Part shown: piece by piece, positions 1-41,588 of the stretch | How the letters are laid out: each line of letters begins with the position of its first letter | Numbering within the stretch: position 1 is the stretch's first letter | Assembly: GCA_016180525.1 (NCBI GenBank) | Contig: JACPBB010000001.1 | Location: 11,320-75,319, forward strand | Source: Parcubacteria group bacterium | Lineage (GTDB): Bacteria; Patescibacteriota; Minisyncoccia; Phycocordibacterales; UBA2135 | Direction: 5' to 3' | DNA: 64,000 nt | Notes under the pieces: model-generated | Databases searched by the model: none | Told to the model about the DNA's origin: nothing | Seen by the model: the letters and a program-made list of their open reading frames with translations, nothing else | Made by a program: the position numbers and the translations under genes

Positions 1-1
1 T

Positions 2-577: not shown

Positions 578-642
578 AAGAGCACGGGCTTGTTTTTTGA
601 AGGAAATGTGATATTTTAAATTCGCCTCACTTTATCTTTTAT

Positions 643-2731: not shown

Positions 2732-2765
2732 TTTTCTTTTTTAAGCGTGATAGTGTTCTTTCAGA

Positions 2766-3338
2766 ATGAAACAAAAAGAGACGGTACTCATGCGACTTCT
2801 GGGCAAAAAAGTTTATCTGCGACCCATGACCGCAGAAGATGTCCACACTCTCAAGAAATGGCTAAATGACCCGGATGTAACAAAATATCTTGATATGACG
2901 ACTCCGTTTATGCGCGGAATACAACAAGATATTATCGGTAATAATTCCCTTCTTTTACAACATACCTTTATCACTGTTGTTAAAGACACCGAGGAGCCGA
3001 TTGGTTTTGGGCGCTTGCAAGAAATAAGTGAAGTTGATAAAAATGCTAAATTTCTGCAGGTTATCGGAGAAAAAAAATATTGGGGTTGTGGATTTGCTTT
3101 CGACGCCCGAATGCTTTTACTGTATTACGCGTTTAACACTTTAAAGTTAATAAAAGTTTACGGAAGAGTATATCGGGAAAATGCTCGTATGTTAAATCAA
3201 GCAAAAAAAGCCGGAGCACGGATAGAGGGTGTTTTAGAAAAGCACAAATTTAGAGACGGAAAATTTCATGACCTTGTCTTAACCGCAACATTTAAAGAAG
3301 GCTGGGAACAAATTTTTGAAAATTATCAAAACTCATGA
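2766..3338 (+). CDS. GNAT N-acetyltransferase, RimJ/RimL-like
   Basis: VYLRP..ED..WLNDP, IGEKKYWGCG, YAFNTLKL.KV, N.R, EGVL..H.FRDG.FHD. Confidence 0.9.
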   Translation: MKQKETVLMRLLGKKVYLRPMTAEDVHTLKKWLNDPDVTKYLDMTTPFMRGIQQDIIGNNSLLLQHTFITVVKDTEEPIGFGRLQEISEVDKNAKFLQVIGEKKYWGCGFAFDARMLLLYYAFNTLKLIKVYGRVYRENARMLNQAKKAGARIEGVLEKHKFRDGKFHDLVLTATFKEGWEQIFENYQNS

Positions 3339-3386: not shown

Positions 3387-4688
3387 TTAATTAACATTTT
3401 GAAACCACATTTCTTGATACGCAGTTGTCGTACATTTATCAGTTAGTATTGGATTTCCGACAAAATTACATAGTTCTTTCATTTCTGCCTTAGTTTGTGC
3501 TGAATGTGCTATTAAAGCGCCGATACCCTGAACACAACCGGTTTTTAAATCTGCCCCTGGCGCCGAAGTACACAGTGCCTTAGTTTGAGAAAAATCCATT
3601 TCCAGTATCTGTCTTGTAAGTGATGGCTGAAAATACGCACATCGTTCTCGGTGCTCTTTCGGAAGAGTCGCGCAGGTCCGCCATATATTATTTTTATCTA
3701 GTTGGTCTTGCTTTGCAAAAAAGGCATATTCTATAAAGACACCGTCATAGCAATATTGTCTATTGCCTACAGACAGTCCATCGCATAACAAAAGAGTATT
3801 TTTAATATTAAAATCGGTTTCAATAAGAAGCGGGTGTGCAATGCCTTGCAAGCAAGCGATAGCAGAAAAACTTAAGTTGCCAATAGTCTCTGAAAACATC
3901 TTAACGCATTCGTTTTCCACAGTAACGATATCATTTTTGTGTTCCAACAAAAACCCGGTAATAACGCCGTGTTGGCATCCATAGGTAAATTCATGAGTAC
4001 AATAGTTTAAACTCCCGATACCATATTTTTTAAAAAGAGAATTTCCGATAATATGTGCTAATGAATGGGTGTCGACAATTTGTTTCCCATTTTCAAACCC
4101 AACAAAAGTCAAATATTTTAGAGCAATGCTGGGGAATTTGTTGCTTAGCCGGATAATGTGATTTTTTTGCTCGTAAGAATAAAGGGATGCAAATTTTCCT
4201 TTGTTTAGATAAACTAAAATATCATTTATTTTTTTAGAATCAAATGGAGAACTAAACGCAAGTTTATTTTTAAAATCAACTAAACGGGTATGTCTATCTT
4301 CCTCTGCTTCTACATATACTGTTCCGACCATTTCAGGAAATAAATGATCATGATAACTCCACGCCCCTTCAAATGCATAAATAAATGACCATTGTTCGTT
4401 TGGATTGAGTCCGCGACACGCGTCAAATAAGCTTCCCAAGCAATCTCTTGGAGATGTTTGCGGGTAATTGCTGTGAGTTACGTGCTCATCTGACGCTGGC
4501 CAGTGCTTCCGTGTTCCTTTGTTTATAAAAGTAATCGTTTCTCCGGTTTGTACATATGTGTTTTGTGGTATAAATTTAGAGTCGGTTATAACAACCACGC
4601 TTGGGTGACTTTCATATTTGCTCGGAATGAGGAGCGCCATTATAATGAGGGCAATTACTGCGACGCTATATTCTATATATTTTTTCAT
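3387..4688 (-). CDS. Membrane-anchored cupredoxin-domain + Cys/His-rich protein (paralogue 1)
   Basis: N-terminal TM; WPASDEHVTH..WSYHDHL cupredoxin; HSLAH, CQHG, CLQGIAH, CYDGVFIE. Start placed at MKKYIE. Confidence 0.75.
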   Translation of the reverse strand: MKKYIEYSVAVIALIIMALLIPSKYESHPSVVVITDSKFIPQNTYVQTGETITFINKGTRKHWPASDEHVTHSNYPQTSPRDCLGSLFDACRGLNPNEQWSFIYAFEGAWSYHDHLFPEMVGTVYVEAEEDRHTRLVDFKNKLAFSSPFDSKKINDILVYLNKGKFASLYSYEQKNHIIRLSNKFPSIALKYLTFVGFENGKQIVDTHSLAHIIGNSLFKKYGIGSLNYCTHEFTYGCQHGVITGFLLEHKNDIVTVENECVKMFSETIGNLSFSAIACLQGIAHPLLIETDFNIKNTLLLCDGLSVGNRQYCYDGVFIEYAFFAKQDQLDKNNIWRTCATLPKEHRERCAYFQPSLTRQILEMDFSQTKALCTSAPGADLKTGCVQGIGALIAHSAQTKAEMKELCNFVGNPILTDKCTTTAYQEMWFQNVN

Positions 4689-4705
4689 AATATATTGTGT
4701 TATAT

Positions 4706-5668
4706 ATGATAACAAAATATTTTCAAAATAAAAAAAGATTTCCTATTTTACTATTGTGCTTTATATTTGTGGTCTTAATTTTTTCATATACGCAATTGTT
4801 TCATCCGTGTCTATATTTTGATGAAAATAATATAAAAACCCAAACAGAACGTTGGGGGGACTGTATTGATGTGTGGGGTGGAAAAGTGGCACATGCCTTC
4901 TTTAAACAGACAAACAAAGTGGTTCCTAATCAATACAAACATATTAACGCGCATATGTTTGGCAATGCCCTTTACAACAATTACAGCCTTGAAAAAGCCC
5001 TTCTCTTTTGCGATTACGCGTATTGGGAAGGATGTTTCCATGAGCTTTTGTCTCGAGCATTTTTAGACGGGGGATATTCCACTTTAAAAAATATTGCCGA
5101 AACATGCAAAAAAATACTCTCTAGCACTTATTCTACAACTTGTCTGCATGGTTTTGGACATGGCCTTATTGCTCTTGGGAAATATACAACTGATGACTTG
5201 CGCGAAGCTCTTGATTTTTGTTCTTTACATTTTTCTGATACAGAAGGGAAAAAAGATGCTTCAAGGCGAGGGTCAGATTATTTTGGAAACGAATGTTACC
5301 ATGGTGTATTTATGGAATATAATGAACGTAATATGTTACCGGAGTTAGGTCCCCGAGAATTAGATTTTAAAAATATATATACGCCATGTGATACATTGGA
5401 TTCTGAATACAAGGCAACGTGCTATCACAGGCTCGCTTTTAATCTGTGGCCTCACAACATATCAAACATAAATATTACTGTTAAGTATAATACACTGATA
5501 TCGTGGTGTCGTGACATTCCCCAAAAAGAATACCATTATTCTTGCGTAAGTGGAGTTCGTACTTCGATGTTTTTTGTCCCAGAAATATCCGCAAAAGAAA
5601 AAAAGAAGGTTTTAAACTTAGTAGATGAGGTCCTCCGAGAAGTACGGGCCTTTTCTGCCCCGATCTAA
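4706..5668 (+). CDS. Membrane-anchored Cys/His-rich protein (paralogue 2)
   Basis: TM; HINAH, GCFHE, CLHGFGHG, CYHGVFMEY. Start approximate. Confidence 0.75.
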   Translation: MITKYFQNKKRFPILLLCFIFVVLIFSYTQLFHPCLYFDENNIKTQTERWGDCIDVWGGKVAHAFFKQTNKVVPNQYKHINAHMFGNALYNNYSLEKALLFCDYAYWEGCFHELLSRAFLDGGYSTLKNIAETCKKILSSTYSTTCLHGFGHGLIALGKYTTDDLREALDFCSLHFSDTEGKKDASRRGSDYFGNECYHGVFMEYNERNMLPELGPRELDFKNIYTPCDTLDSEYKATCYHRLAFNLWPHNISNINITVKYNTLISWCRDIPQKEYHYSCVSGVRTSMFFVPEISAKEKKKVLNLVDEVLREVRAFSAPI

Positions 5669-5688
5669 CCATCTCAAAAATAAGTACT

Positions 5689-7401
5689 TTATTTAGGAAT
5701 TTGCCTTGTATAGATTATCAAATCGCTCTTTTTAATAATATCTATAATTGCTTGACGCGAATATGTATCTTGTAAATCATTTTTAAGAGATATTAACCCG
5801 TTTTTCTCCAGATTTTTTTCTTTATGAGTAATGAGAAATGGAGTGTCTGTAACAATGCTCTTATTAAAACTCAAAAAGGCTGATGATGGTGCGGCGTAGA
5901 AAAGAAACAAATCATGAAAATCAACCTTTACCCCCAATAACGCAAGTGTTGATAAAAATTTGCTATATCCGGTAACGGCAAAGATAAGCTGGTCCACGTA
6001 TGCTGTTTTTGTGCGATAGAGCGTCAACAACCGTTCAATAAACAATAATTCATTTGTATTGAAATTTGTTTTTAAATCTTTTGCTCCATACAAAAAAGAA
6101 AGGGTGTTTAAAAAAATGACGACGTCATCTTGATACACAATCGGAAAAGCTGTTATTTTTTCCTGGAGTTCAGTAATTGTTTTATTGCCCAAAAACCAAT
6201 CATGTTCGGAGAGCAGGGACCGAATTTTAAGAATTGCCATTATCTTTACAAAATCAGTGCCATAATCCGGACAAGAATAGGAAGTTGGTATTGGTTGATA
6301 CAAAAGAGGAAAGGCCGCATTCGTTTTTTCCTGAAGAGCACGCTGAAGCGGCTTTTCTGTATTTTTTGAAATATGAAAATATAGGTCATTTAAAAGAACT
6401 ATTCTCGGGCTGAATTCACTACCGTATTTCTGCGGCATGACAGTGTAATATGCGGGGGTATCTTCAAGAGCACAGGCGCTGCTCCCGAGAACAATGACCG
6501 GCATGGATTCATACCATTGTTTCTCTGTCTCATTAGATACACTGAGTATTGAGTAGTAATTACGAATTAAAGACGCGTTGCTTTTGATAATTTCAGGAAT
6601 ACTATAAAAATTTTCTTGTTCAGATACTTCTTGTGAATTTAAAAAGGGCTGAAAAGAAGCTGATGCTAAAGAACATTTTTTTATATTCCCATTAAAACAC
6701 TTCATTCTATTGTTTCTTTTTTCGTCAATATCGTATGAAGCATTAATCAGAGTATTTAAAAATGTTACATATGTTTCATTTGAAATAGTTCCTGTTGGAA
6801 GAAAAAAATTTTTCTGGTCATGCTCAGCATATATGTGTTTCATTTTTTCAGCGTTTTTGCGATATATCTTAACCGTTCTCTCCAGTAACGCATCGTATGT
6901 TTTGATGTTTTCGACTGAAGGACGTTCCACTACGTCTCTGCGTGCCTTCTCAAGGTCGGCAATTGAATATAAAAAATCAGTCGGGTATAGATTTGACCTT
7001 AAAATTTTTTCCTCTCGTGGATAATAATACCCCGCAAAATTATCAAAAGATTGTTCCATACGAGCGATAGAGTTCCTCAATGTTTCTATGTCAGTTTCCG
7101 GAATAGCAAGAAACGGCTCTACGCGGGTCAAAAGTGAGTAATATCCTGCGCGAAGCGCCACAACTTCGCGCTTAAGAGTAGGAGGCGCCTCAACAAAAAC
7201 AATGCTGCCTTCAGAAATAGTATAGTGTTTCTCGTCTATAACAATTTCAGGAAGAATAAATTGGGCAAGCTCTTTTGAAAAAAACTTTTTTTCTTTTTCC
7301 AACTGAACTGTATTTTTAAATACGCTGACATAAAAAACCAATAATATAAAAAAACTTAGAATTATCGGTATACATACTCGGCGCTTTAACTGATACTTCA
7401 T
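5689..7401 (-). CDS. Hypothetical membrane-anchored extracytoplasmic protein (570 aa)
   Basis: Long ORF with N-terminal TM helix, last gene of a minus-strand run. Confidence 0.7.
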   Translation of the reverse strand: MKYQLKRRVCIPIILSFFILLVFYVSVFKNTVQLEKEKKFFSKELAQFILPEIVIDEKHYTISEGSIVFVEAPPTLKREVVALRAGYYSLLTRVEPFLAIPETDIETLRNSIARMEQSFDNFAGYYYPREEKILRSNLYPTDFLYSIADLEKARRDVVERPSVENIKTYDALLERTVKIYRKNAEKMKHIYAEHDQKNFFLPTGTISNETYVTFLNTLINASYDIDEKRNNRMKCFNGNIKKCSLASASFQPFLNSQEVSEQENFYSIPEIIKSNASLIRNYYSILSVSNETEKQWYESMPVIVLGSSACALEDTPAYYTVMPQKYGSEFSPRIVLLNDLYFHISKNTEKPLQRALQEKTNAAFPLLYQPIPTSYSCPDYGTDFVKIMAILKIRSLLSEHDWFLGNKTITELQEKITAFPIVYQDDVVIFLNTLSFLYGAKDLKTNFNTNELLFIERLLTLYRTKTAYVDQLIFAVTGYSKFLSTLALLGVKVDFHDLFLFYAAPSSAFLSFNKSIVTDTPFLITHKEKNLEKNGLISLKNDLQDTYSRQAIIDIIKKSDLIIYTRQIPK

Positions 7402-7405
7402 GCTA

Positions 7406-7834
7406 TTATAGCGGGTTTACGGCTATAACCTCCGCAACAAAATACCCGTCTTGAATATCATATAAAATTTGAACTTTGTCGCCAGCATATAGATCACTTA
7501 TTGTTGTGTCTTTTATATCTAAAAAGACCAGTGCATTATTCTCAAAATGAGGGATATTTTTTACCACGCGTGTTTCTTCATTAAACACAATTTTAATTTT
7601 TTGATTTTCACGGGTCGGATGATAGTGATTGTTGATTTTCACAATCATATATTTTTCTTCTGGGTTAATGAAAAAAATATTTCCGCCCCTGAAGACTTCT
7701 TCTGATGAGAACGGCGTATAAAGCACTGGTTTATTTTTTTCAGCCATCAAAAATAAAAAAAATAATAAACTCAAACAAAAAACCATGATAATGACAAAAA
7801 AATAACATATTCTTCTTTTTGTTAAAGGAGGCAT
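7406..7834 (-). CDS. Small membrane-anchored OB-fold-like (DUF5666-like) protein
   Basis: TM, then F.EETRV..ISDLYAGDKVQILY..AEVI. Confidence 0.55.
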   Translation of the reverse strand: MPPLTKRRICYFFVIIMVFCLSLLFFLFLMAEKNKPVLYTPFSSEEVFRGGNIFFINPEEKYMIVKINNHYHPTRENQKIKIVFNEETRVVKNIPHFENNALVFLDIKDTTISDLYAGDKVQILYDIQDGYFVAEVIAVNPL

Positions 7835-7849
7835 TTGTTTAACATAGTT

Positions 7850-8314
7850 TTACTTTTTATACGTTTTATATTGAATGATTTGTGTTGCGTAAAATCTTTC
7901 TTTATTTCTCTGTACGTAGATAACCAATAAATCTCCCGAAGAAAGTTCATTTAAAAATGATATATCTTTATCATAATAAAAAAACTTATTTGAAATAGTA
8001 TAGCCTTCACGAACAGAGACGCGTGTAGAATCATCAAAATAAACTTTTGTTTTACCGGACACTTGAAAAAATGGATTTGCAATTTGACTCAAAATAATAG
8101 ACTGTTCTTCAAAATTTACCAAATCCAGAGTGACCCACAGCTTCTCTGTTTTTGATTTCATCTGGCTTAATTTGATATCAGAATTTCTTTCATTCACAAG
8201 CGCGGTCTGTTCATTGGTATTTGTTGAAAAAAGAAAGACATGCCCCAAAATAATGCCTAAACTAAAACTGGCAAAAAACAACAATAAGCAGTATTTAAAA
8301 TAAATATTCTCCAT
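7850..8314 (-). CDS. Small membrane-anchored OB-fold-like protein (paralogue)
   Basis: TM; YFDDSTRV..LNELSSGDLLVIY..ATQI. Start placed at MENIYF. Confidence 0.55.
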   Translation of the reverse strand: MENIYFKYCLLLFFASFSLGIILGHVFLFSTNTNEQTALVNERNSDIKLSQMKSKTEKLWVTLDLVNFEEQSIILSQIANPFFQVSGKTKVYFDDSTRVSVREGYTISNKFFYYDKDISFLNELSSGDLLVIYVQRNKERFYATQIIQYKTYKK

Positions 8315-8729
8315 GGAGTATAAAGGGCGTGTACTTGGAATTATCATTTAACGAACTATAAACAATGACATACTCACCGGGACGAATATTTTCAATAGAG
8401 CTCTCAATAGTGTCTTTTATGCTATACACTATATCGTCTTTTGAAAAAATAAGAGCTCTTTGAACAATAGTATTTTTATCAAAATAAATTTCATTGATGA
8501 CCCTTTTTTCCGGTGAAAATCGACTTCGTTCTTCAAATTTAATCGTATTTTTTTTAAGATCAACAGACTGAAGAATTCCATATTGCCTTCCGATATATGT
8601 TATTATTCCAGTCTTAATATTTTTATTAACTTGATGTTGCAATACAAAGGATACAGCCAAAAAACCAATTAAAAATCCTGATAATAAAAAAAGGAGGAGC
8701 CCCCAGAAATTGATTCTATTTTTAAACAT
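8295..8729 (-). CDS. Small membrane-anchored OB-fold-like protein (paralogue)
   Basis: TM; GILQSVD..YFDKNTIV..IENIRPGEYVIVY. Confidence 0.55.
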   Translation of the reverse strand: MFKNRINFWGLLLFLLSGFLIGFLAVSFVLQHQVNKNIKTGIITYIGRQYGILQSVDLKKNTIKFEERSRFSPEKRVINEIYFDKNTIVQRALIFSKDDIVYSIKDTIESSIENIRPGEYVIVYSSLNDNSKYTPFILHGEYLF

Positions 8730-8769
8730 AATACACAATCTATATTCTATACTATACTATAATTAACAC

Positions 8770-10437
8770 ATGATTTCGTCTCAAAGGACAGTGGCTATTT
8801 TTATTTTTTTTATAGGCTCTTTTTTATTGCCGCTTTTTTTAATTCCCGGATACTCTTATCTATTCTCAGAAGCGGGTAAATTCGTACTTTTTTTTATTAC
8901 CATACATGTATCGGCGGGGTTTTTATTATATTCATGGTGGAAAAACAACTCTATTGACCTGCCCGCCCATCCTCTTTTTGCATCTCTATACTGTATCTTT
9001 CTTTTTATTTTTCTTTCATCGCTTTTTTCAAAGTCATATTATGTTTCATGGATATACTTTATAAATCATGAAAACACATTTTTCTTTTTTTATCTTTTGT
9101 TTCTCGTACTGTTTTTGTCTATATATTTTTTAAAATATAAGCAAGTAATTTTATATATATATGAGATTATTCTTTTCTCCTTCGTAACCCTCATCCCATT
9201 AAGTGGGGCAATGAATTTTTTTAATAAATTGGGCTTCATTAAAAATATAGAATCATTTCTTGACACAACAACTAATGTCATTATATTTTCAGGACTTGTT
9301 GCCGTTGTTTCATTGCTTTTATATATATTTTCAGAAAGTAAGATGATGCGCGTGTTTCCAATTATTACACTTGTCCTTTCATCACTGATTCTCTTTTGCG
9401 CATTTAAAGAAGAGGCAAAACTTGCCCTTTCTTTTCCCGTTGAAAATATGGCTGTCTTACAAGAAACAATAAAAGAATCTCCCCTGCGAGCACTTTTAGG
9501 AAGTGGGCCTGGAACTGTTCAATATCAATACGATCTATACGCACCTGAAGAAACTCCCACACGATCGTGGAGTAGCAGTCTTTTAATCCAATTTGGACTT
9601 TTAGGTGGATTTGCGTGGATTGTATTTTTTATTTTATTTTTGTATTTTGGCATATGGTCATTTTTGGAAAAAAATGCTTTGGCAATTGGAAATTTTATTG
9701 TTGCTCTATACTTGTGGATTTTTGCCCTTCTATATCCAGTAAATTTTACCCTCGTTGCCTTTACATTTTTATTTACAGGCATTTGTATCACACTCCAAAT
9801 CATTAAAGATTCTGAAAACAAGATCATTATTCCATTACAAAAAAGAAGCTCTCGCGTTGTGTTTGCATGTTTGGTGGGCATTGTACTTTTTACAAGCACG
9901 CTTGGTATTATAGTTTATACAAAAAAATCAATTTCATATGCTTTTTATCAGAATGCTCTTGTGATTGAAAGTAAAGAATTATTTTTAGACACCGTGAAGC
10001 GGGCATTGCAGATTTCAAAAGAGGACATATATTACAGAAAGCTCGCGGATTTTTATATTAAAAAAACAGAGATGGCACAGGGCCTTGTTCTCTTTACTGA
10101 ACAGAATAAAAAAATAGTTGAATATGGCGGAAACGCCGTTTCTTATGCCAATGAAGCCGTTCGTATAAATCCGAGCGATTACAGAAATTGGGGGACGCTC
10201 GGAAACATATACCTTGTATTTGAAAGGTTGGGCGTACGCGGAGGATACGAGCTTGGAAAAAATGCTTATTCAGAAGCACAAAAACTAAGTCCCAAAAATG
10301 AAATATTGCTCTTGGAGCGCGCGGAGTTGGCGTTTCTTGCCAAAGATATTCATTTTAGGGAACTATTGAAAGAATTACTGCAATATAATCCACATAACAT
10401 AGAGGCTCAAAAAAGATTGCGTGAGTGGGGATTGTAA
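8770..10437 (+). CDS. O-antigen-ligase-like polytopic membrane protein with C-terminal TPR repeats
   Basis: Many TM helices, LLGSGPGT loop, GLLGG.AW, then TPR-like A.RINPSDYRNW..LG.IY. Confidence 0.65.
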   Translation: MISSQRTVAIFIFFIGSFLLPLFLIPGYSYLFSEAGKFVLFFITIHVSAGFLLYSWWKNNSIDLPAHPLFASLYCIFLFIFLSSLFSKSYYVSWIYFINHENTFFFFYLLFLVLFLSIYFLKYKQVILYIYEIILFSFVTLIPLSGAMNFFNKLGFIKNIESFLDTTTNVIIFSGLVAVVSLLLYIFSESKMMRVFPIITLVLSSLILFCAFKEEAKLALSFPVENMAVLQETIKESPLRALLGSGPGTVQYQYDLYAPEETPTRSWSSSLLIQFGLLGGFAWIVFFILFLYFGIWSFLEKNALAIGNFIVALYLWIFALLYPVNFTLVAFTFLFTGICITLQIIKDSENKIIIPLQKRSSRVVFACLVGIVLFTSTLGIIVYTKKSISYAFYQNALVIESKELFLDTVKRALQISKEDIYYRKLADFYIKKTEMAQGLVLFTEQNKKIVEYGGNAVSYANEAVRINPSDYRNWGTLGNIYLVFERLGVRGGYELGKNAYSEAQKLSPKNEILLLERAELAFLAKDIHFRELLKELLQYNPHNIEAQKRLREWGL

Positions 10438-10489
10438 GGGTATCCACAGTTGTCGACGATTAGATTAGCATGTATAATGATATGCAAAT

Positions 10490-11056
10490 ATGAAAAGTGC
10501 TGAAAAAATGTCATTGTTCATCGGAGGATTATTTTTAATGCTCATTCCATTTTTGGCGTCTGGTCAATCCGGGTCAACAAAATTAACTGATTCAGTAACA
10601 ATTGGAGGTAGTATAAATATTACCGGCTCTATTGCAAAAGGAAGCGGTACGCTTGTCATAGATCATCCGCTTGATCCAGCGAATAAACTGCTCTATCATT
10701 CGTTCGTTGAATCTCCGGATGTTAAAAATATTTACGATGGTGTTGTGAAATTAAATAGAAACGGAGAGGCAAAAGTAAAACTACCAAAATATTTTGAAGC
10801 GCTTAATAAAGATTACCGGTATCTTGTGACCCCAATTGGAAAACCATCTCCCAATCTTTACATTAAACAAGGTGTTGAAAATAATATGTTTATTATTGCT
10901 GGAGGGGAAGCGGGAATAAAAGTCTCCTGGCAAGTAACGGGTATCCGCCGTGACCCACATATTATTGCAAACCCAATTATTCCTGAAATTGAGAAGGGGA
11001 CCAGTGCGTTAGTAGATAAAGGAGTTTATATATTACCTGAAATATATGGAAACTAG
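10490..11056 (+). CDS. Secreted mini-fibre protein with IDHPLDP..HSFVESP C-terminal module (copy 1, intact)
   Basis: Signal peptide, short beta-repeat VTIGGSINITG, conserved module resembling C-termini of fibrous or tail-fibre proteins. Confidence 0.7.
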   Translation: MKSAEKMSLFIGGLFLMLIPFLASGQSGSTKLTDSVTIGGSINITGSIAKGSGTLVIDHPLDPANKLLYHSFVESPDVKNIYDGVVKLNRNGEAKVKLPKYFEALNKDYRYLVTPIGKPSPNLYIKQGVENNMFIIAGGEAGIKVSWQVTGIRRDPHIIANPIIPEIEKGTSALVDKGVYILPEIYGN

Positions 11057-11534
11057 ACAAACACCTGTTGTTATAATTATCACATCCGGAATTATGGGGG
11101 CAATTTTTCTTTTCCCGTATATTGCGTCGGCAATCTCTCGTATTAATGAAAGTGTTACGGTGCGAGGAAACGTGGTTGTTACCGGCGCGCTTGCAAAAGG
11201 TTCCGGCTCATTCGTCATAGACCATCCACTTGATCCTGCTAATAAATTACTCTATCATTCGTTCGTTGAATCTCCGGATGTTAAAAATATTTATTTTAGA
11301 TATCAATTCTCCTCTCTTGAAAAACCTTCTCCTAATCTTTATATAAAACAAGAAATACGAAATAATAGATTTGTAATCTCCGGAGGTGAACCAAAAATTA
11401 GAGTATCGTGGCAAGTAACAGGCGTGAGACATGACCCGTATATTCTTAAAAATCCGATTATACCAGAGGTAGAAAAAGGGTCTAATGAGTTGGTAAATAA
11501 GGGAGAATATGTATTTCCTGAATTATATGACTAA
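11046..11534 (+). CDS. Mini-fibre protein copy 2 (26-codon in-frame deletion relative to copy 1)
   Basis: Same module; NIY is joined directly to FRY. Confidence 0.65.
   Translation: METRQTPVVIIITSGIMGAIFLFPYIASAISRINESVTVRGNVVVTGALAKGSGSFVIDHPLDPANKLLYHSFVESPDVKNIYFRYQFSSLEKPSPNLYIKQEIRNNRFVISGGEPKIRVSWQVTGVRHDPYILKNPIIPEVEKGSNELVNKGEYVFPELYD
11195..11293 (+). repeat. Exact 99-bp direct repeat, copy A
   Basis: aaaaggttccggc...gttaaaaatattta is identical to 11787-11885. Confidence 0.9.
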
Positions 11535-11634
11535 AACAACATTTAAAAAAAAGAATAACACTAACAAACTATTTTTTCTCTTTTTGATAGGTTTTTTGTT
11601 TTATTTTCAATTACCATCTATAGCAAAAGCTGCT

Positions 11635-11724
11635 TATAGTCAGGGTTATTACTATGCTCAAGGTTACTACTATGGCGAGGGTTATTACTATGCAGAAGGC
11701 TATTACTATGCTCAAGGAACATAT
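11635..11724 (+). repeat. 18-bp coding tandem repeat, (S/A/G)(Q/E)GYYY x4 plus a partial unit
   Basis: Translates as YSQGYYYAQGYYYGEGYYYAEGYYYAQGTY. Confidence 0.9.
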
Positions 11725-11786
11725 AGAACAACTTTTACTACTAATACCACATTTACCCAAAATTTAACGATTACCGGAGAATTAAA

Positions 11787-11885
11787 AAAAGGTTCCGGCT
11801 CATTCGTCATAGACCATCCACTTGATCCTGCTAATAAATTACTCTATCATTCGTTCGTTGAATCTCCGGATGTTAAAAATATTTA
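11787..11885 (+). repeat. Exact 99-bp direct repeat, copy B
   Basis: Identical to 11195-11293. Confidence 0.9.
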
Positions 11886-12341
11886 GAGTTGTAACGCTTG
11901 ATGAAAAAGGTGAAGCAGTAGTCGAGCTTCCTGCGTATTTTGAAGCACTCAATAAAGATTTTAGATATCAGGTTAAGCCAATAAATAAATCGTCTCCTAG
12001 TTTGTATATAAAAAGCGAAATAAAGGATAATCAATTTATGATTGCCGGAGGTGAACCAAAAATTAGAGTATCATGGCAAGTAACAGGCGTGAGACATGAC
12101 CCGTATATTCGCGCAAACCCAATTATTCCCGAGACAAGAAAGGGGCGAAATGAAATAGTAAACAGGGGAGAGTATTTGTTTCCCGAGCTGGCAGGAAAAT
12201 ATATTGAAACCCAAATATCTTTATGGGAAAAAATGGTATTCTTCTTTAACTCTCTTTTCAAGTAAGATTATATAGATTTTAAAAACAAAACAGTATATTG
12301 TATATGCAATATACTGTTTTTTGTGTCATGCATATCTAAAT

Positions 12342-13367
12342 ATGAAATTGTTACCATATCAAAATATATTATTTATAGCTGTAATTATCATAGGAGGTGT
12401 TTTGCTCCATAAAAATCTGTCGTCGGAATCATTTTTAGGATTTTCTCTAAAAAAAGAACAAAAATATTGGTCTGAACACATGAGCACTAAAAACGCCGAA
12501 CAGATTTCTGAAATATTCCAAAAGAAATATAAGAAGCTCAATCCCGCTGAACAACATGCCGCAGCCCACATCGTTGGCGAAGCTATTTATAAAAAACAAA
12601 GTTATTCGGGAATTGTGTTTTGTGATTACGTAATTGGAGACGCTGGATGCGTTCATGAGTTGATGACGTTGGCAATTTTAGAAAATGGACTTAATATAAT
12701 ACCATCAATAAATAAAGAATGCTTGAATTTGCCAAGCAACAAAAGAACAGCCTCGTGCCAACACGGCGTGGGCCATGGAATATTGTTTTATTTGGGATAC
12801 GATTATAAAAGTTTACTCAAAGGGCTTGAACAATGTTCCCTAATTACCGCTCCATATCTTAGAGAGAGTGTCCGCTACGTGGAAGGATGCGTTGGGGGTG
12901 TGCTTATGGAATATAATTCAAACCCGTCATTAAATAAAAGCCAAAAACCAAGAGTTTTTGCGCTAGATTCCGTATACGTTCCGTGTACTTCTCTGGGAGA
13001 AGAGATGCGCTCAGTTTGTTATTTTTGGCAAACTCAGTGGTGGAATGCAAATTTAAAAGATTATAATACTATAGGAAAATATAAAAAAATGGGAGAACTA
13101 TGCACTGTTATAGTTAATGCGAATGAAAAAACATGGTGTTTCCGTGGAATCGCGCATGCAATGATCCCAGACACTAAGTGGATAGTAAAAAAAGCATTAC
13201 ATTTTTGCAATTCCATAACATTAGACGCGGGAAGACAGGAATGCCAGGCATACGCCGCTTTTCTTTTTAAAGATGAGGGGTTAGAATCCGTATGTAATTT
13301 TGTAAATGATGAAGAAAAAAAAGAGTGTGTTGAAATATCGTCTTCTCTTCTTGCAAGCGAGAGTTAA
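12342..13367 (+). CDS. Membrane-anchored Cys/His-rich protein (paralogue 3)
   Basis: QHAAAH, GCVHE, CQHGVGHG, CVGGVLMEY. Confidence 0.75.
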   Translation: MKLLPYQNILFIAVIIIGGVLLHKNLSSESFLGFSLKKEQKYWSEHMSTKNAEQISEIFQKKYKKLNPAEQHAAAHIVGEAIYKKQSYSGIVFCDYVIGDAGCVHELMTLAILENGLNIIPSINKECLNLPSNKRTASCQHGVGHGILFYLGYDYKSLLKGLEQCSLITAPYLRESVRYVEGCVGGVLMEYNSNPSLNKSQKPRVFALDSVYVPCTSLGEEMRSVCYFWQTQWWNANLKDYNTIGKYKKMGELCTVIVNANEKTWCFRGIAHAMIPDTKWIVKKALHFCNSITLDAGRQECQAYAAFLFKDEGLESVCNFVNDEEKKECVEISSSLLASES

Positions 13368-13373
13368 ATTATC

Positions 13374-14444
13374 ATGAAATTTCAATCTGAAAAAAACATA
13401 ATAATTTTTCTTGTGATTATTTCCGGAATCTTTTTTTTATATAACAAAAATATTCCGGAGTTTTTTGTAGGTACACCTCTAGGCCCTCAGCTCTCAAATA
13501 TTGGCAATAGTCGTGAAGATCTTCAAATTAAAAGGGATCATTGGAAAAGCCGTATAAACGAAATTGGTCCAGAGAGCGCCTACTCTGAATTCTTACAAAC
13601 ATACAACCATATGAATTTTGAGAAACAGCATACTTTTGCGCATATCATGGGTGAGCTTCTTTATGAAAAAGTAGGAGTTAATGGTTTAGCAATATGCGAT
13701 AAGTCATTCGCGTTTGGCTGTTTCCACGGTTTTTTTACGGGAGCAATTAGCAAAGAGGGAATTGGAGTTATAGCTAAGCTCGACAATGCCTGTCTTAAAA
13801 AATTTGGACCATATGGAACAGGGTGTCAACACGGTATTGGGCACGGTATTTTAGAGCACGTAGGACCGGATTCACTGGTTAAAGGGCTTGAGGCATGTAG
13901 ATTCACTACTCAGATAGAATCATCGCATTTTGGTTGCACCTCCGGTGTTTTTATGGAATATAATACACAAACTATTTTTACTAGAGATAATGTCTATCAA
14001 AAAGTGAGAGACTTAAAAGAACAAAACCCTTTTGAGCCCTGTAATACACTAGTACCAAGCAAATTTAAAAACTCTTGTTATTTTGAAATAAGCGCATGGT
14101 GGATGCAGGTATTTAACAAAGATCATATAAAAGTAGGCCAACTCTGCCAAATGATACAAGGGGAAGAATATAGAAAGTCGTGTTATTTGGGATTTGGTAC
14201 GGTAAGCGCACATCTTGCTCAATATAATGTTTCAGATGCAATAAAAATATGTAAAGAAACGTCAGGCGGAAACATAGAAGCTGAATTATTATGCCGAGCA
14301 AGCGCTTCATGGTCTTTTTGGGCGATGCCGGGGCATAAACAAGAGTCTCTTGCCCTGTGTGATAATTTTGAAGATGAAGAAGTTGAATTTCGTTGTGTGA
14401 GCGAATCTGACCTTATCGGAACAGGAGAAAAATTCAATAAATAA
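13374..14444 (+). CDS. Membrane-anchored Cys/His-rich protein (paralogue 4)
   Basis: QHTFAH, GCFHG, CQHGIGHG, CTSGVFMEY. Confidence 0.8.
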   Translation: MKFQSEKNIIIFLVIISGIFFLYNKNIPEFFVGTPLGPQLSNIGNSREDLQIKRDHWKSRINEIGPESAYSEFLQTYNHMNFEKQHTFAHIMGELLYEKVGVNGLAICDKSFAFGCFHGFFTGAISKEGIGVIAKLDNACLKKFGPYGTGCQHGIGHGILEHVGPDSLVKGLEACRFTTQIESSHFGCTSGVFMEYNTQTIFTRDNVYQKVRDLKEQNPFEPCNTLVPSKFKNSCYFEISAWWMQVFNKDHIKVGQLCQMIQGEEYRKSCYLGFGTVSAHLAQYNVSDAIKICKETSGGNIEAELLCRASASWSFWAMPGHKQESLALCDNFEDEEVEFRCVSESDLIGTGEKFNK

Positions 14445-14456
14445 TTTTGTATATCA

Positions 14457-15932
14457 ATGGGAAAAAAAACTTTACGCATATTAATTATAGTAATTTTTTT
14501 AATTGTATTGTCGGGAATATACTATACTCTTTTTGAGACCCAAAAAAATAAAAATCATATCATTGAGCTTCGTGAAACCGGTTTTTATCCAAAAACAATT
14601 ACGATAATTCAAGATGATGCTGTCTTGTTTAGAACAAAACTTAATGAAACATTCTGGCCGGCAAGCGATCCGCATCCAATTCATAATTATTACCCTGAAG
14701 AAAATTTTGACCCCCAAAGAGCCCTTGGGCCCGATGAAGAATGGCAGTTTACATTTACACAAGCCGGCACGTGGAGATATCATGACCATTTAAATCCATC
14801 TTTACGGGGAGAAATTACAGTACTTCCAAATAAAAGCTATACTGCGTATTTACCGTGTAAAAAAGAAACCGGACAATGTTTTGACGAACTTATACGAAAA
14901 ACAGTTTCTGAAAAAGGAATAGCCGCTGCGTACGCGCTTTTTACCGAAACATACGCAAAAGGAGAGTTACCGCGTGCATGCCACTGGACAGCGCACCAGA
15001 TAGGGGAAGAAGCGTATGAGTTATTTAAGGGCGGGGAAACATTTCCCATAACAGGCGAGACATCATATTGCGGATATGGATTTTTTCACGGTTTTCTTGA
15101 GAGCTTGTTGCGGGAAAATCCCGATGTTAAATTTGCTCTTTCTTTTTGCGATGAGGCTGAAAGGCAATTGGGTATATTAGGACTTCAGAACTGCTATCAT
15201 GGCATAGGGCATGGATTTACCGAAGACCCTCCGGATCCATCCGTATGGGGCAATTTTGAAGGAATGGTAGCACCTGGCATAGAGATATGCGAATATTTAT
15301 TTAAAAATTCATTTACAAACCTTAATTTATGCCTTACGGGCGTATTTACCGTCCCTGTCGGATTTGCGGAAAAGAAAGAGTATGGGTTGTCGCTAAGCCC
15401 CAGTGACCCATTTGCCATATGCAGAGAGCAGCCATACAAATACCAAAAAGCCTGCTATGGAGAAATTACACCAAAACTGGACTCTATTTTAGAAGGTGAT
15501 TTTTCTCAATTTCCAAAACACCTTGCCGGTATTACTGATGAAAAAATAAGAAATTTAATTATTTGGGTTGCTCCATCTGTCATGGTCGCGCGTGAGATTC
15601 TTAAAGACGATTATGGTGGGTTTATAGAAGTGTGCAGAAACAACTTTGTCGGTATTGAAAGAGAAATTTGCTGGGGCGGAATAATACTCGGATTTTTTAC
15701 GCATGGAGAGCCTGAAAAACAATATAAAAAAGGAATTTCATTCTGTAAATCACAGCTGTTTAATGCTTCGGAAAAAAAATTCTGCTATAAACAATTATTT
15801 CACAGAATGCACGCTGAATACACAGAGGATAAAATAAAAAATATTTGCACTAATGAAGTTTCGGAAACATATCGCTCTTCATGCTTATCAAAAAATCAAC
15901 AATCCATATACAAAGACCCTGTTTTTGAATAA
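14457..15932 (+). CDS. Cupredoxin + Cys/His-rich protein (paralogue 5)
   Basis: WPASDPHPIH..AGTWRYHDHL; CHWTAH, CGYGFFHG, CYHGIGHG. Confidence 0.8.
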   Translation: MGKKTLRILIIVIFLIVLSGIYYTLFETQKNKNHIIELRETGFYPKTITIIQDDAVLFRTKLNETFWPASDPHPIHNYYPEENFDPQRALGPDEEWQFTFTQAGTWRYHDHLNPSLRGEITVLPNKSYTAYLPCKKETGQCFDELIRKTVSEKGIAAAYALFTETYAKGELPRACHWTAHQIGEEAYELFKGGETFPITGETSYCGYGFFHGFLESLLRENPDVKFALSFCDEAERQLGILGLQNCYHGIGHGFTEDPPDPSVWGNFEGMVAPGIEICEYLFKNSFTNLNLCLTGVFTVPVGFAEKKEYGLSLSPSDPFAICREQPYKYQKACYGEITPKLDSILEGDFSQFPKHLAGITDEKIRNLIIWVAPSVMVAREILKDDYGGFIEVCRNNFVGIEREICWGGIILGFFTHGEPEKQYKKGISFCKSQLFNASEKKFCYKQLFHRMHAEYTEDKIKNICTNEVSETYRSSCLSKNQQSIYKDPVFE

Positions 15933-15933
15933 C

Positions 15934-17409
15934 ATGCAAAAATTTAAAATAAAAAAATATCTTTTCGGACTTTTCATTATCATTCCGATTGTCGGACTAA
16001 GCGGGTATCACGCATATCAAAAATCAACCCCTGCAAATGTTATATTCTCAGAAATTGGAACATACGGAGCAACATTAACGGAGCAAGGTTTTATGCCAAA
16101 AGAAATTACTATTCCAATTGGCTCAACTATCGTTTTTTCCACAACACTAGATAAATTTTTCTGGCCAGCATCAAATTTTCATCCATCTCATGCAATATAT
16201 CCTGAATTTGACGCTAAAAATCCAGTTCCATCCGGAGAAAGTTGGAAATTTCAATTTAAAGAAGCTGGAACATGGGAATATCATGACCATCTATCTCCTT
16301 ACTTTGGAGGAACGATAAGAGTAACGGATGAAATAAATACAACATTAAAAGAAAACCTATGTGAAAATAACAAAAAACAATCAGCATGCTGGCGGTCCCT
16401 TTTATTTTCTCAATTAAAAAATAATGGTATTGACACAACATTTTCTATCCTTGAGAGCCTGTACAAAACAGAGTTAGGATTTAGAGAAACGTGCCATGGA
16501 ATTACCCACGATCTTGGGATTGAGTCATACCAGTATTTTTTAAAAAACAAAGATTTAATTTTAACTACAAAATCATCGGCATGCGCGTATGGATTTTATC
16601 ATGGATTTATGGAGGCGCTTCTTACTCATACGGGTGACATACAACAAGCGCGTGAATTTTGTCTTTTTATTGATAAAAAAATAACCCCAGATATACCAGA
16701 TGCGACACTGCAGTGTTTCCATGGCATTGGACACGGAATTATTGACATGCAGGTCACTTTCAACGGTCGTCAACAGGACAAAGAAATGCTTATAAAAGAT
16801 GCGTTGTCATTTTGTGAAAGCGCTTCTCGGACAGACGAGGAGCTCTATCGATGTGCTTCTGGGATATACAATAGCGTTGCAAACATATACATACTTGAAA
16901 AAAACTGGTCCTTAAAACAAGATGAGATTATCTCTCTTTGTACGCATCAGCCAGAAAAATACAAAGAGAGTTGTTACGGGAATATGAACTCTCTTATGTT
17001 TCGCGCCGCGGATAACAATTTAGGAAAATCACTCATTTTTATAAACGAAATAGAGGAACAATATAGAGAATCTGCTGTCCGCTATCTTTCAAATTTAAGC
17101 GTTATATATACAATTCTGCAGGATAAAGATTACGACGAGGAGGTGGGGGCATGCCGTTCTTTGCCGGACATTCTTTATACAGCATGCCTTGAAGGTCTTG
17201 TACACGGGCTTCTAGAGCATGGACAGCCCAGAGAGGAATATAAAAAAGTAATTGATTTCTGCGAGGCTCCAATCCTTACCATGTCCGAAACGGAGAAATG
17301 CTTTGAATATGGACTTTCAAATCTTGGAGGCTGGTATTTAAAAGAAAAATCGCAAGAAATTTGTAATGAAATACCCGAAACGTATAAACAATATTGTAAG
17401 CAAGTTTAA
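15934..17409 (+). CDS. Cupredoxin + Cys/His-rich protein (paralogue 6)
   Basis: WPASNFHPSH..AGTWEYHDHL; CHGITH, CAYGFYHG, CFHGIGHG. Start placed at MQKFK. Confidence 0.8.
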   Translation: MQKFKIKKYLFGLFIIIPIVGLSGYHAYQKSTPANVIFSEIGTYGATLTEQGFMPKEITIPIGSTIVFSTTLDKFFWPASNFHPSHAIYPEFDAKNPVPSGESWKFQFKEAGTWEYHDHLSPYFGGTIRVTDEINTTLKENLCENNKKQSACWRSLLFSQLKNNGIDTTFSILESLYKTELGFRETCHGITHDLGIESYQYFLKNKDLILTTKSSACAYGFYHGFMEALLTHTGDIQQAREFCLFIDKKITPDIPDATLQCFHGIGHGIIDMQVTFNGRQQDKEMLIKDALSFCESASRTDEELYRCASGIYNSVANIYILEKNWSLKQDEIISLCTHQPEKYKESCYGNMNSLMFRAADNNLGKSLIFINEIEEQYRESAVRYLSNLSVIYTILQDKDYDEEVGACRSLPDILYTACLEGLVHGLLEHGQPREEYKKVIDFCEAPILTMSETEKCFEYGLSNLGGWYLKEKSQEICNEIPETYKQYCKQV

Positions 17410-17414
17410 TTTTT

Positions 17415-18593
17415 ATGGAATCAATATATAAAAAAAATGTTCTGTTGCCTTTTCTCTTTTTGTTCGTGGTAGCGATGATTATTTTTTACATTAAACCAAA
17501 CTCTTCACTTGCACATCACGCAGCATCTATTTTGCAAATATGCGCAACAGAAGAATATAAACCAGCTTGCTACGATAGAGAAATACCCAAATTGATGGAC
17601 ACCGAGCTTTCAATGGAAAATGCGTTTGCTGTTACGAAACTGATTCAACAAAAAGATGATTCATATTTTTACTGCCATGTATTGGGACACAACTTGAGCG
17701 CGAAAGAAACTGCCAAAGACCCTTCAAGGTGGAAAGAAGTTATTGCTCGCACTCCAAGCGGTATGTGTTCAAACGGAGGCATCCATGGTGCTTTTCAGGA
17801 AAGGTTTAGAGCTGAAGCACTGCCAGAGGCAAGTGTTGCTGAATTAGAGCCCATTCTTACTGATATTTGCAATAAACGAGAAAACTGGAACCCGACACGA
17901 CTGGAACAGGCAACGTGCACGCACGCCGTGGGACATCTAGTGATGTACGTTACAGGCGGGGATATTCATAAATCTCTGGCACTCTGTGAAAAAGTCGCAT
18001 TTAACGAAGAGGGGTATGATTTTAAACAAATTTGTTTTGACGGAGCGTTTATGCAAATATTCCAGCCGCTTGAGCCGGAAGATTACGTACTCATAAAAGG
18101 GAGGGAACAGACACGAGAGACCGTTAATTCATTTTGTGAAAAATTTACGGGAGCACGCTATGGATCATGTCGTTCGGAAAGCTGGCCACTTTTTCACGAA
18201 GAAATAAAAACAGCTCCAGGTCTTACTCGTTTTTGCTCTTTTCAAAAAGATTTTGAACAAAAAGAGCGCTGTTATTCAGGAATGTTTTACGTATTAACGG
18301 CAGAATTTAATTTAGACCCCATTAAAATTGAAAATCTTTGCGAAGCATTTCCTCAAGAGTTGAAAAATAAATGTTTTGCAAATGCCGCATCTCGGATGAT
18401 TGAAACTGATTGGAGCAAAATTCCTGACGCAATTTCTTTGTGCGCTATTTCAGAAAAACACGGAGCAGGAGATGCGTGCTATAGAGAATTATTGCTATAT
18501 TCTAACTATAATTTTCACCCAAGATCTAAAGAATTCTATTCGCTATGTCGGCATTTACCTAATGGGTGGGAAGGAAAGTGTCTTTCAGGGTAA
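17415..18593 (+). CDS. Membrane-anchored Cys/His-rich protein (paralogue 7)
   Basis: CHVLGH, CSNGGIHG, CTHAVGH, CFDGAFMQ. Confidence 0.8.
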   Translation: MESIYKKNVLLPFLFLFVVAMIIFYIKPNSSLAHHAASILQICATEEYKPACYDREIPKLMDTELSMENAFAVTKLIQQKDDSYFYCHVLGHNLSAKETAKDPSRWKEVIARTPSGMCSNGGIHGAFQERFRAEALPEASVAELEPILTDICNKRENWNPTRLEQATCTHAVGHLVMYVTGGDIHKSLALCEKVAFNEEGYDFKQICFDGAFMQIFQPLEPEDYVLIKGREQTRETVNSFCEKFTGARYGSCRSESWPLFHEEIKTAPGLTRFCSFQKDFEQKERCYSGMFYVLTAEFNLDPIKIENLCEAFPQELKNKCFANAASRMIETDWSKIPDAISLCAISEKHGAGDACYRELLLYSNYNFHPRSKEFYSLCRHLPNGWEGKCLSG

Positions 18594-19883
18594 TTGTGTT
18601 AATTTTCCGCACTCATTTCGTATATCTTTAGGAAATTGTTTACAAATCTTTCCAATATCTTCTGGTTCAAAAAGTATGGGGATTTTTTTTATAACCTCTC
18701 CATAACAAAAATTACGAAGCCCTTTTTCTTCTAAGGTTGGATTAGAGCAAAAAACAATTGGGTGTTTGTAAGTTTTTCCTGGTATACCAAACTCGTATAA
18801 TGCGTGCACAATTCCTTTAACGCACCCCTCGTATACTTCCTGTTCAAAAAACTCACACTGCGCAAGAATTCTTTGATATTGGCTTTCTTTCTCGTGTTCT
18901 AGATATATTACATTGTTTAAAACATTATAAAGCATGACTTTTTTAAATTGCCAGTCACCTTCAATTGATTGAATTTTATTAATTACGGGAAAAGTATTTT
19001 TATCGGACAATGTATACATTGTATAAAGTGAGTGAGCCATAATTTTATTGCAAGTAGCATATGCGTTGATTTTTAATCCTTCGCATATTGAAAACGGGTC
19101 TTCTGCGCTCAAGGAAATATCATAACCATTTTTATTACCGTGACCATCAGAATCTTCTTGTATAAAGCGAAGCATCGCTCCGAGTACGCCGGTTTTGCAA
19201 GCTTCTTTTTCATCTTCATTCGCAAGCAAGAGTGCTTCACATTGTTCCACTGGTTTTTCAACGAATACATTTAAATTGCCCCATTTACTTCTTGGTGTTT
19301 GTTCAATGTTTGAATACAAAAGCCCGTGTCCGGCACCAAGGTAACAAATATTACCGATGGATCTGATTTTATTGTTGTAGCGTGTTTTTACGTTTTCACA
19401 TATTTCTGTTACAAATTTTGAACTTGCGTTATCTTGTACTAGGTGACCTACAACAGCATGAGAAAAACCGTAGCCGCACGCTAACATTGATGGTGAAAAA
19501 TCAATAAGAGATATATCCTTTGTATTAAGATAAAGATTATAATATGTGAAATCACCTAAAGAATGCATTAACCGATGGCATCCGTCTTCATAAAAAATCG
19601 CTTTTTTAAAAAAATCTGACACATATGCAGCGCTTACTATGCGCAAGCCAGCACGAGGACCGTCACGCAGTGTTTCATTTTCCATAATTGTATACAGACA
19701 ATCAATTTTTTTATCGTTATCTTTAATAATCTTGCAATTATTAAGTAAGGCGACTGCCCTTATGTCAGATAGCATGTCTGTTTTAAATATTAAAAAAGCT
19801 ACAGCAAGCAATAAAACTATTACAAAAAATGCAAAAGGTGCATTCATCACTTTTTCGGCATAAAGTCTATTAATTATGTTCAT
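18585..19883 (-). CDS. Membrane-anchored Cys/His-rich protein (paralogue 8, divergent)
   Basis: CHRLMH, CGYGFSHA, CYLGAGHG. Confidence 0.75.
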   Translation of the reverse strand: MNIINRLYAEKVMNAPFAFFVIVLLLAVAFLIFKTDMLSDIRAVALLNNCKIIKDNDKKIDCLYTIMENETLRDGPRAGLRIVSAAYVSDFFKKAIFYEDGCHRLMHSLGDFTYYNLYLNTKDISLIDFSPSMLACGYGFSHAVVGHLVQDNASSKFVTEICENVKTRYNNKIRSIGNICYLGAGHGLLYSNIEQTPRSKWGNLNVFVEKPVEQCEALLLANEDEKEACKTGVLGAMLRFIQEDSDGHGNKNGYDISLSAEDPFSICEGLKINAYATCNKIMAHSLYTMYTLSDKNTFPVINKIQSIEGDWQFKKVMLYNVLNNVIYLEHEKESQYQRILAQCEFFEQEVYEGCVKGIVHALYEFGIPGKTYKHPIVFCSNPTLEEKGLRNFCYGEVIKKIPILFEPEDIGKICKQFPKDIRNECGKLTQLP

Positions 19884-39459: not shown

Positions 39460-39463
39460 GATA

Positions 39464-41536: not shown

Positions 41537-41588
41537 GTACCTTTCTAGGTTCCTGACAGGGCCGCAAAAAACTCTTTACCTGTGAGCT

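Follow-up and report, generated by a model that had tools for sequence, protein, structure and literature searches.

Plant extensins, mussel foot proteins and the walls of spores and oocysts are made of Tyr-rich proteins that are hardened by peroxidases or tyrosinases. Tyrosinase-type type-3 copper proteins hold six histidines in a four-helix bundle; PHM and DBH have a beta-sandwich fold, the ligands of PHM being five histidines and one methionine (His3 and His2-Met); and hemerythrin uses five histidines and two bridging carboxylates in a short four-helix bundle. DUF3328/UstYa proteins have two HxxHC motifs. BURP and DUF3328/UstYa proteins are reported to depend on copper and to cross-link the aromatic side chains, among them Tyr, of encoded peptides; their clusters each contain several genes for enzymes and precursors, and the BURP domain has four CH motifs and four invariant histidines (PMC12186524). 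Here we compare with these systems a gene array found in a 64,000-nucleotide stretch of a Parcubacteria group bacterium (G000:C3:11320-75319 of a 945-kb genome; the whole stretch is called the window below). An earlier note on this DNA had proposed that eight His- and Cys-rich paralogues form an unnamed oxidase family acting on secreted Tyr-rich fibres. We find a real, unnamed multi-part system, consisting of a predicted His-rich solenoid family in conserved arrays, copper-type accessory proteins and a portable Tyr tag. It is new in its make-up, and its chemistry is one that we infer.

Eight homologous, N-terminally anchored open reading frames (ORFs) were confirmed in the window, with profile E-values within the genome of 1e-27 to 1e-129. 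Each encodes a single N-terminal hydrophobic segment and 13-18 cysteines. Five lie in tandem (12342-18593) directly 3' of genes for secreted proteins with an IDHPLDP domain, and three (3387, 14457 and 15934) carry a cupredoxin-type domain; the earlier note had this layout right. Its claim of a full motif shared by all eight stood only in part. With the site read at aligned positions 86/90/118/153/157/194/195, all five histidines are kept in five of the eight paralogues, and five histidines plus the ME pair in three. On the minus strand, the paralogue at 3387-4715 has an N-terminal Cys-less cupredoxin and Gln for one site histidine (HHHQH-IE). Plus-strand paralogues at 4697-5668, which has a shortened C-terminus, at 12342-13367 and at 13374-14444 all read HHHHH-ME; the last of these is of subtype B, one of four subtypes described below, with H86, H90, H118, H153, H157, M194 and E195. 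Two cupredoxin-fused genes of subtype D follow on the same strand: D1 (14457-15932, HHHHH-TV), modelled as a cupredoxin at residues ~33-123 fused to a helical domain (predicted local distance difference test, pLDDT, 92.2; predicted template modelling score, pTM, 0.85), and D2 (15934-17409, HHHHH-NS). Subtype C at 17415-18593 (plus) has Tyr for the first histidine (YHHHH-MQ), and a divergent minus-strand paralogue at 18585-19883 (HHHLH-GA) is kin to two others at G000:C3:481-2917.

The array is larger than the eight members first claimed, a number that holds for the window. Four further paralogues, subtype A included, with a free Cys-less cupredoxin and a PaaK-like ligase, lie upstream of window position 1 (G000:C3:481-6949), giving an island of 12 paralogues in 31 kb of low GC (guanine plus cytosine) content. 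GC is mostly 32-39% over the first 32 kb of the contig, compared with ~41.5% contig-wide, and reaches 52-54% across ~4 kb at G000:C3:50001-54000 (~window 38700-42700). The island extends to the contig start, where a GKLDVGTIDP-type domain closes a larger surface protein. The genome's homologues carry Patescibacteria labels. The island is patchy, being present in 7 of 60 relatives, and was not found in the sole same-genus genome compared (88% complete). Plasmid and phage collections gave no match, and no RNA run is listed as containing window DNA.

The organization of the family was analysed in 75 loci, drawn from the best 80 of the 441 matches obtained with an alignment centred on subtype B; a few of these loci share a contig or genome. 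A tree of 403 core-spanning sequences (of 406 non-redundant sequences taken from the fetched loci) resolves subtypes A, B, C and D. Subtype A occurs in 58 loci and subtype C, with Tyr for the first histidine, in 54. Subtype B falls into several clades, of which the largest is found in 42 loci and has weak support, while subtype D is cupredoxin-fused, has Asn or Thr for Met and has its largest clade in 30 loci. The usual gene order is A-B-(D)-C. In the present genome B, D1, D2 and C stand in this order at 13374-18593, with A upstream of the window (G000:C3:4763-5902). Fusions A+B, C+B, D+B and A+D were seen (subtype by best profile score); one protein joins an N-terminal-His domain, a cupA cupredoxin (both described below) and two family domains, and others chain many domains. 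From the recurring subtype sets and the fusions, the array set behaves as a unit. The members of the expanded family that the earlier note had suggested are conserved subtypes in recurring order and not the products of free expansion. Lone family genes mostly form clades of their own.

Some family proteins have unusual architectures or neighbours. Giant proteins carry four or more family domains (P0255, P0256, P0262 and L089:6933-12041); a glycoside hydrolase family 3 domain closes one of them and FG-GAP repeats close another, and SYPPK/SYSPR repeats lie near the giant protein of L089. A family domain stands behind a DCC1-like thiol-disulfide oxidoreductase domain in P0118 (Pfam match) and L099:5950-8433 (by eye), and is fused to a polysaccharide deacetylase in P0359. 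A pair of membrane genes without Pfam names interrupts arrays between genes of subtype D (L010:11076-12501), each of the two belonging to a cluster found in 6 loci.

Copper-type proteins accompany the arrays. The cupredoxin cupA was found in 54 of the 75 family loci, a membrane-anchored Ig-like protein with an N-terminal histidine in 30 and a second cupredoxin-like protein in 24. The cupA domain has the fold of a cupredoxin: Foldseek matched it to plastocyanin at E 2e-4 (TM 0.72 of the target), and it matches amicyanin at E 2e-6. Its YHDH aligns to amicyanin YHCT, so that Asp replaces the type-1 Cys; there is no conserved Cys, and four histidines are invariant, from which we conclude that cupA does not hold a blue type-1 site. 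In the Ig-like protein an invariant histidine lies directly behind an Ala-type signal end and is the predicted first mature residue; a mature N-terminal histidine is a hallmark of CopC-type copper binding. Clusters with CopC-bearing representatives occur in 4 loci and with DsbA-bearing representatives in 9, and the present genome encodes a VKOR homologue (disulfide formation) and a putative heavy-metal P-type ATPase. A secreted protein adjoining the array at L026:2901-3983 (cluster in 3 loci) has a VIHHIVL stretch recalling PHM/DBH-type copper monooxygenases; it had no Pfam match at E 0.01.

A further companion of the arrays is a periodic Tyr tract. In the window, six-residue units of type Y-x-Q/E-G-Y-Y at 11635-11721 (plus strand) lie right behind the signal peptide of a secreted IDHPLDP-domain protein of ~250 residues (11509-12265, plus strand), the predicted substrate. 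The same detector found only this one periodic Tyr tract in the whole 945-kb genome. Such a tract is present in 35 of the 75 family loci and in 25 of the 44 that span at least 15 kb. With a stricter motif, a tract was found in 30 loci, sharing its strand with the matched family gene in 27 of them; in 15 of the 30 the tract gene directly adjoins a family gene. Across 318 tracts the composition is 42% Tyr, 17% Ser, 14% Gln and 13% Gly. Among 401 genomes of the order, the family occurs in 45, the tract in 10 and both in 9, spread over 7 families (Fisher p 1e-8, a value that is overstated because related genomes are not independent). The association also held in reverse. The tract DNA pattern alone matched at least 123 metagenome stretches, giving 121 loci, 80 of them with flanks. 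Among the matches listed, family genes were found in 22 of 121 loci (most of them short), in 16 of 35 of at least 5 kb and in 14 of 25 of at least 10 kb; on inspection by eye, four of the 25 lack a true tract in a secreted protein. Loci with both family and tract number 57 and fall into 51 groups at 70% identity. The link to Tyr-rich secreted genes that the earlier note had drawn thus holds in both directions.

The partner that the note had named, the IDHPLDP mini-fibre, did not hold: that domain was found in only 7 of the 75 loci and was rejected as the array's partner. The partner is the Tyr tract itself, which occurs on IDHPLDP proteins, proteins with PG-binding, Ig or Hint domains, Cys-rich secreted proteins, type IV prepilin-like proteins and peptides of 84-127 residues. 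Because the tract is found on many unrelated secreted scaffolds, we regard it as a portable tag. In the type IV prepilin-like proteins (L085:5958-7912, L143, L161, L180 and L191) it lies behind the pilin domain, away from the array. The 84-127-residue peptides (L133:9899-10198, L200, L220, L228 and L229) open with a signal, followed by a short A-D-V/T/I/A-P lead-in and then the tract, and most end in a Gly/Asp/Cys tail. Variants with other periods were also seen, YP-x in L072 and L113 and GEYT in L061.

Two observations on individual carriers may be added. L133 has a PaaK-like-looking neighbour and no family gene within 10 kb. Hint-like domains directly follow the tract in L040:3334-5982 (Pfam Hint), L050, L069, L054 and L088:12417-13406, and one Hint-like tract protein bears a twin-arginine-like leader; self-cleavage by these domains would put the tract at a new C-terminus.

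The family itself has no name in the libraries searched. No match above cut-off was found in Pfam, NCBIfam or PHROGs (for PHROGs, two of the eight paralogues), with Pfam scans covering the 8 window proteins at E up to 0.05 and 123 aligned family members at E up to 0.1. Weak LuxS matches in 2 of the 123 members were taken as chance. The best match in a PDB sequence search reached only E 0.02, and the ESM Atlas, with queries including homologue P0008, returned unnamed clusters and no usable named match. No description of the family or the tract was found in full-text literature, a search in which supplements were out of scope, subscription journals were mostly missing and family catalogues in such supplements may list the family unnamed. 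The earlier statement that the domain belongs to no named family was upheld. A profile built from 20 sequences recovered 7,223 representatives (50% identity clusters) at E up to 0.001 and 2,414 at 1e-30. The few labelled members of one Atlas cluster are mostly Actinomycetota. Some loci carry the labels Acidimicrobiales, Nanoarchaeia, Verrucomicrobiia or Gammaproteobacteria; these sit in genomes of 0.8-1.8 Mb and may be mislabelled.

Conservation centres on the site residues. All seven are invariant among the 120 closest homologues of the 13374 protein. Across the 403 core sequences, H90, H118, H153 and H157 are each kept at 98%, H86 at 84% (Tyr 15%), M194 at 76% (Asn 15%) and E195 at 57% (Gln 17%); the five histidines are complete in 329, and HHHHH-ME is the commonest pattern (214). 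An AlphaFold2 model of the 13374 protein is all-helical apart from a short hairpin (pLDDT 90.5, pTM 0.85). The conserved residues fall on helices 82-107, 111-128, 149-163 and 188-197 with i, i+4 spacing, and a C-x-H/S-G pattern begins the last three. By this model the site residues would line up as two rows along a single face of the solenoid. In a covariation analysis (567 sequences, effective 507) the Cys pairs 108-116, 293-307, 329-341, 223-235 and 140-151 rank high, which fits a pattern of one disulfide in each repeat, and so do 116-194 and 150-195; the predicted fold is a disulfide-stapled alpha-solenoid. A structure search gave generic solenoids only (best Z 6.6 among 48,161 chains), Foldseek with the family model gave no match at E <0.001, and likeness to TPR, Sel1-like or armadillo repeats is weak by both the PDB sequence search and the Z score. 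The structural check that the earlier note had proposed therefore yielded no confident match to a characterised non-enzymatic family, nor did any other of the note's refuting outcomes that could be checked turn up, although absence from fold-search lists does not prove the fold new.

How might these parts work together? Tract carriers bear a signal peptide or a prepilin leader, and their genes are observed to accompany the arrays. Each subtype is predicted to form a solenoid in which H86/H90, H118, H153/H157 and M194/E195 sit on four successive inner helices lining one groove. These residues may make up a site for two copper ions, perhaps with the His3 and His2-Met ligand sets of PHM/DBH, while the Cys-less four-His cupredoxins, fused or free, and the N-terminal-His Ig-like proteins would load or shuttle copper. 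Subtypes A, B, C and D would then act jointly on the tract as it emerges from the membrane, either assembled in a complex or one after another, and the product would be Tyr-Tyr cross-links or 3,4-dihydroxyphenylalanine (DOPA), stiffening or gluing fibres, pili and coat proteins. Cross-links are the most likely product, given how densely YY and YxY are spaced. Copper binding, the two-metal site, joint action and Tyr chemistry are all steps that we infer. That the array is a multi-subtype, probably copper-dependent system that oxidizes or cross-links tagged tyrosines outside the membrane is our preferred explanation and, in our judgement, about as likely to be right as not.

Several observations weigh against it. 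An oxidase needs an oxidant, yet the present genome lacks a heme-copper oxidase, and such oxidases are not enriched with the family (3 of 45 genomes versus 11 of 356, p 0.2). Five of the nine genomes positive for both family and tract had supplied tracts to the profile; without them the association is 4 of 40 versus 1 of 356. In the order, 36 of the 45 family-positive genomes have no tract-profile match, a figure inflated by a profile that undercounts, since in G062 it missed two tract genes beside the array; conversely, G105 has a tract, at a contig end, and no family match. Among the metagenome matches listed, seven long loci have a tract gene and no family gene within reach, two of them with cupA. 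Lone family genes keep the five histidines and ME, yet a tract lies near only 1 of 24 such loci, and that single locus holds two family genes. In a phylum-wide sample of 331 genomes the family occurs in 18, the present one included, and the tract DNA pattern was found in none of the other 17; it matched three further genomes once each, none family-positive, and a control pattern matched two. One cluster of this sample, L113, bears the different Tyr repeat mentioned above. Couplings between histidines in the covariation analysis may reflect only joint loss in decayed copies. Finally, a search confined to the island of the present genome found neither the N-terminal-His protein nor the second cupredoxin. 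From the lone family genes and the phylum-wide sample, the tag goes with the array type, and the wider family must have other substrates or roles.

It is also possible, though unlikely, that the solenoids are non-catalytic receptors or chaperones, which bind the tract in a groove organised by a structural metal and so anchor, sort or assemble tagged surface proteins. Dockerin-cohesin and choline-binding systems work likewise, the folds that come closest, all of them weak matches, are those of peptide-binding solenoids such as armadillo and HEAT repeats, and both the many-domain chains and the tolerated loss of site histidines in some paralogues fit avidity binding. However, four histidines nearly fully conserved among subtypes that diverge widely, together with cupredoxins and N-terminal-His proteins as regular companions, exceed the needs of a binding scaffold.

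Non-oxidative zinc, manganese or iron enzymes, which would add or remove a group on Tyr hydroxyls or cut or ligate at the tract, seem to us quite unlikely. His/Glu clusters also serve hydrolases, and sulfatase-like, adenylating-ligase, glycosyltransferase and N-acyltransferase-like genes lie near some arrays. A link of the family to O2 respiration was sought via heme-copper oxidases and not found, as this explanation would allow. Such neighbours are sporadic, however (sulfatase-like genes in 4 of 75 loci, the ligase in 5 of 75, GT2-like genes in 9 of 77), compared with the cupredoxins, and the conserved Met favours copper, whereas the Glu is kept in little more than half of the sequences.

[quoted passage not shown] The 84-127-residue carriers do resemble precursors, and the copper-dependent BURP and DUF3328 proteins are reported to cross-link aromatic residues, Tyr included, in peptide precursors (PMC12186524). 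Most carriers are nonetheless large surface proteins with the tract internal or at either end, neither spacers nor protease sites separate the head-to-tail repeats, and no protease cluster is among the common neighbours. A copper homeostasis or detoxification island, in which Tyr-rich genes hitch-hike on mobile DNA or bind metal passively, has the slimmest prospect of all: the low GC, the patchy spread, the CopC- and DsbA-type neighbours of some loci and the lone family genes without a tract would fit it, but the subtype sets are conserved, and hitch-hiking of one gene would not place the tract on unrelated scaffolds, some of them, as in the pilin loci, far from the array in the same genome.

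The remaining genes around the array were also annotated. Upstream of the window, L001:7302-11896 (G000:C3) encodes a class III aminotransferase and two membrane-anchored sulfatase-like proteins, in which, read by eye, Thr occupies the motif position; sulfatases usually have Cys or Ser there. Positions 1-3338 of the window (plus strand) hold the end of a sulfatase-like gene, a 280-residue ORF, a PaaK/F390-like adenylating ligase and a GNAT gene, all accessory island genes. Ligase and sulfatase-like genes were rejected as core parts on the counts given above, as were the aminotransferase and GNAT, neither being among the common neighbour clusters. On the minus strand lie a 570-residue membrane-anchored protein of no known family (5689-7401; homologues in 6 of 75 family loci) and three small membrane-anchored proteins without a family match (7406-8738). 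A polytopic membrane protein with a C-terminal TPR-like part (8770-10437, plus; homologues in 4 of 77 loci, the window included) precedes the IDHPLDP genes, and a secreted Ig-like protein (19959-21032, plus; homologues in 7 of 75 family loci) follows the array.

The first of the three plus-strand IDHPLDP genes (10490-11056) has no Tyr tract. The second (11046-11534) has a 78-bp gap near 11293 and the third, the tract gene, an apparent frameshift at 11885; both breaks lie at the end of a ~100-bp stretch common to the two genes. Contigs from three groundwater runs of one study, two of them possibly the source of this DNA, show a loose end at 11293 and, behind 11885, five additional bases. The breaks are most likely assembly errors at the repeated stretch, and both genes most likely intact. 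A pseudogene status of the tract gene was rejected on the extra bases; read as a single ORF it resembles a 245-residue homologue in L003. The IDHPLDP domain, which has no match in Pfam, NCBIfam, PHROGs or PDB, has more than 7,000 longer relatives in which it is fused to LamG, Gly-rich and other domains. It is a large unnamed module common in longer surface proteins, and 'mini-fibre' would be an interpretive label for its short forms here.

The combination of tag and enzyme array gives a testable handle on how Patescibacteria build and fix their surface structures. A more far-reaching reading is tentative, and we lean somewhat against it: the arrays would represent a copper oxidase of a new class, built on an alpha-solenoid and working at the surface as a machine of four subtypes. 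It would read a portable Tyr tag that marks pilins, fibres and coat proteins for cross-linking or DOPA formation, and so provide a subset of Patescibacteria with covalent glue or armour with which to hold on to hosts or surfaces. If true, this would add a new copper-enzyme fold, with more than 7,000 clusters at 50% identity and none named in the libraries searched, a genetically encoded Tyr tag usable for protein cross-linking or bio-adhesives, and a new means by which ultra-small bacteria make their surface sticky or hard. The tag on type IV pilins ties the system to a structure that has been shown to help Saccharibacteria bind their hosts (PMC11623550), in a paper whose main text does not contain the word 'tyrosine'.

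Compared with the systems described at the outset, the array resembles BURP and DUF3328 in its proposed His-ligated copper cross-linking and in keeping several enzyme and precursor genes together. The family has one optional CH (position 85-86, in 39% of sequences) against the four CH motifs of BURP, and HxxxH and CxHGxGH in place of the DUF3328/UstYa motifs, with no Pfam match to the latter. No sequence match to either group (0 of 123 members) and no fold match was found, and the family differs from both in being bacterial and membrane-anchored, with cupredoxin partners and tracts on large surface proteins. To type-3 copper proteins (tyrosinase, catechol oxidase and hemocyanin) the likeness lies in histidines on helices in i, i+4 pairs and in Tyr as the proposed substrate; the difference lies in four to five histidines plus Met on a predicted alpha-solenoid rather than six in a four-helix bundle, with no Pfam match among the 8 window proteins or 123 members and no place among the structure-search rows listed. 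With PHM and DBH the likeness is one of count, the five histidines and one Met of PHM equalling the commonest set of candidate ligands in the family; they are likewise secreted and disulfide-rich with peptide substrates (proposed for the family), but a beta-sandwich contrasts with the all-helical model, there is no sequence match, and subtype D replaces Met with Asn or Thr. Hemerythrin also combines five histidines with carboxylates on helices, whereas the family has a single Glu and no second conserved carboxylate among the checked site positions, many disulfides, a predicted solenoid and no sequence match. The models that the earlier note had drawn on, tyrosinase, hemerythrin, BURP and DUF3328, thus show no detectable kinship with the family, and judged by its sequences the system is not a member of the BURP, DUF3328 or tyrosinase groups. 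The cupA partner resembles plastocyanin and amicyanin in fold and sequence and departs from them at the Asp and the four invariant histidines. Like Tyr-rich structural proteins, the secreted carriers are dense in Tyr repeats that include Gly, Ser, Gln or Pro; the former are hardened by peroxidases or tyrosinases, whereas the tag described here is portable and is accompanied by a gene array dedicated to it.

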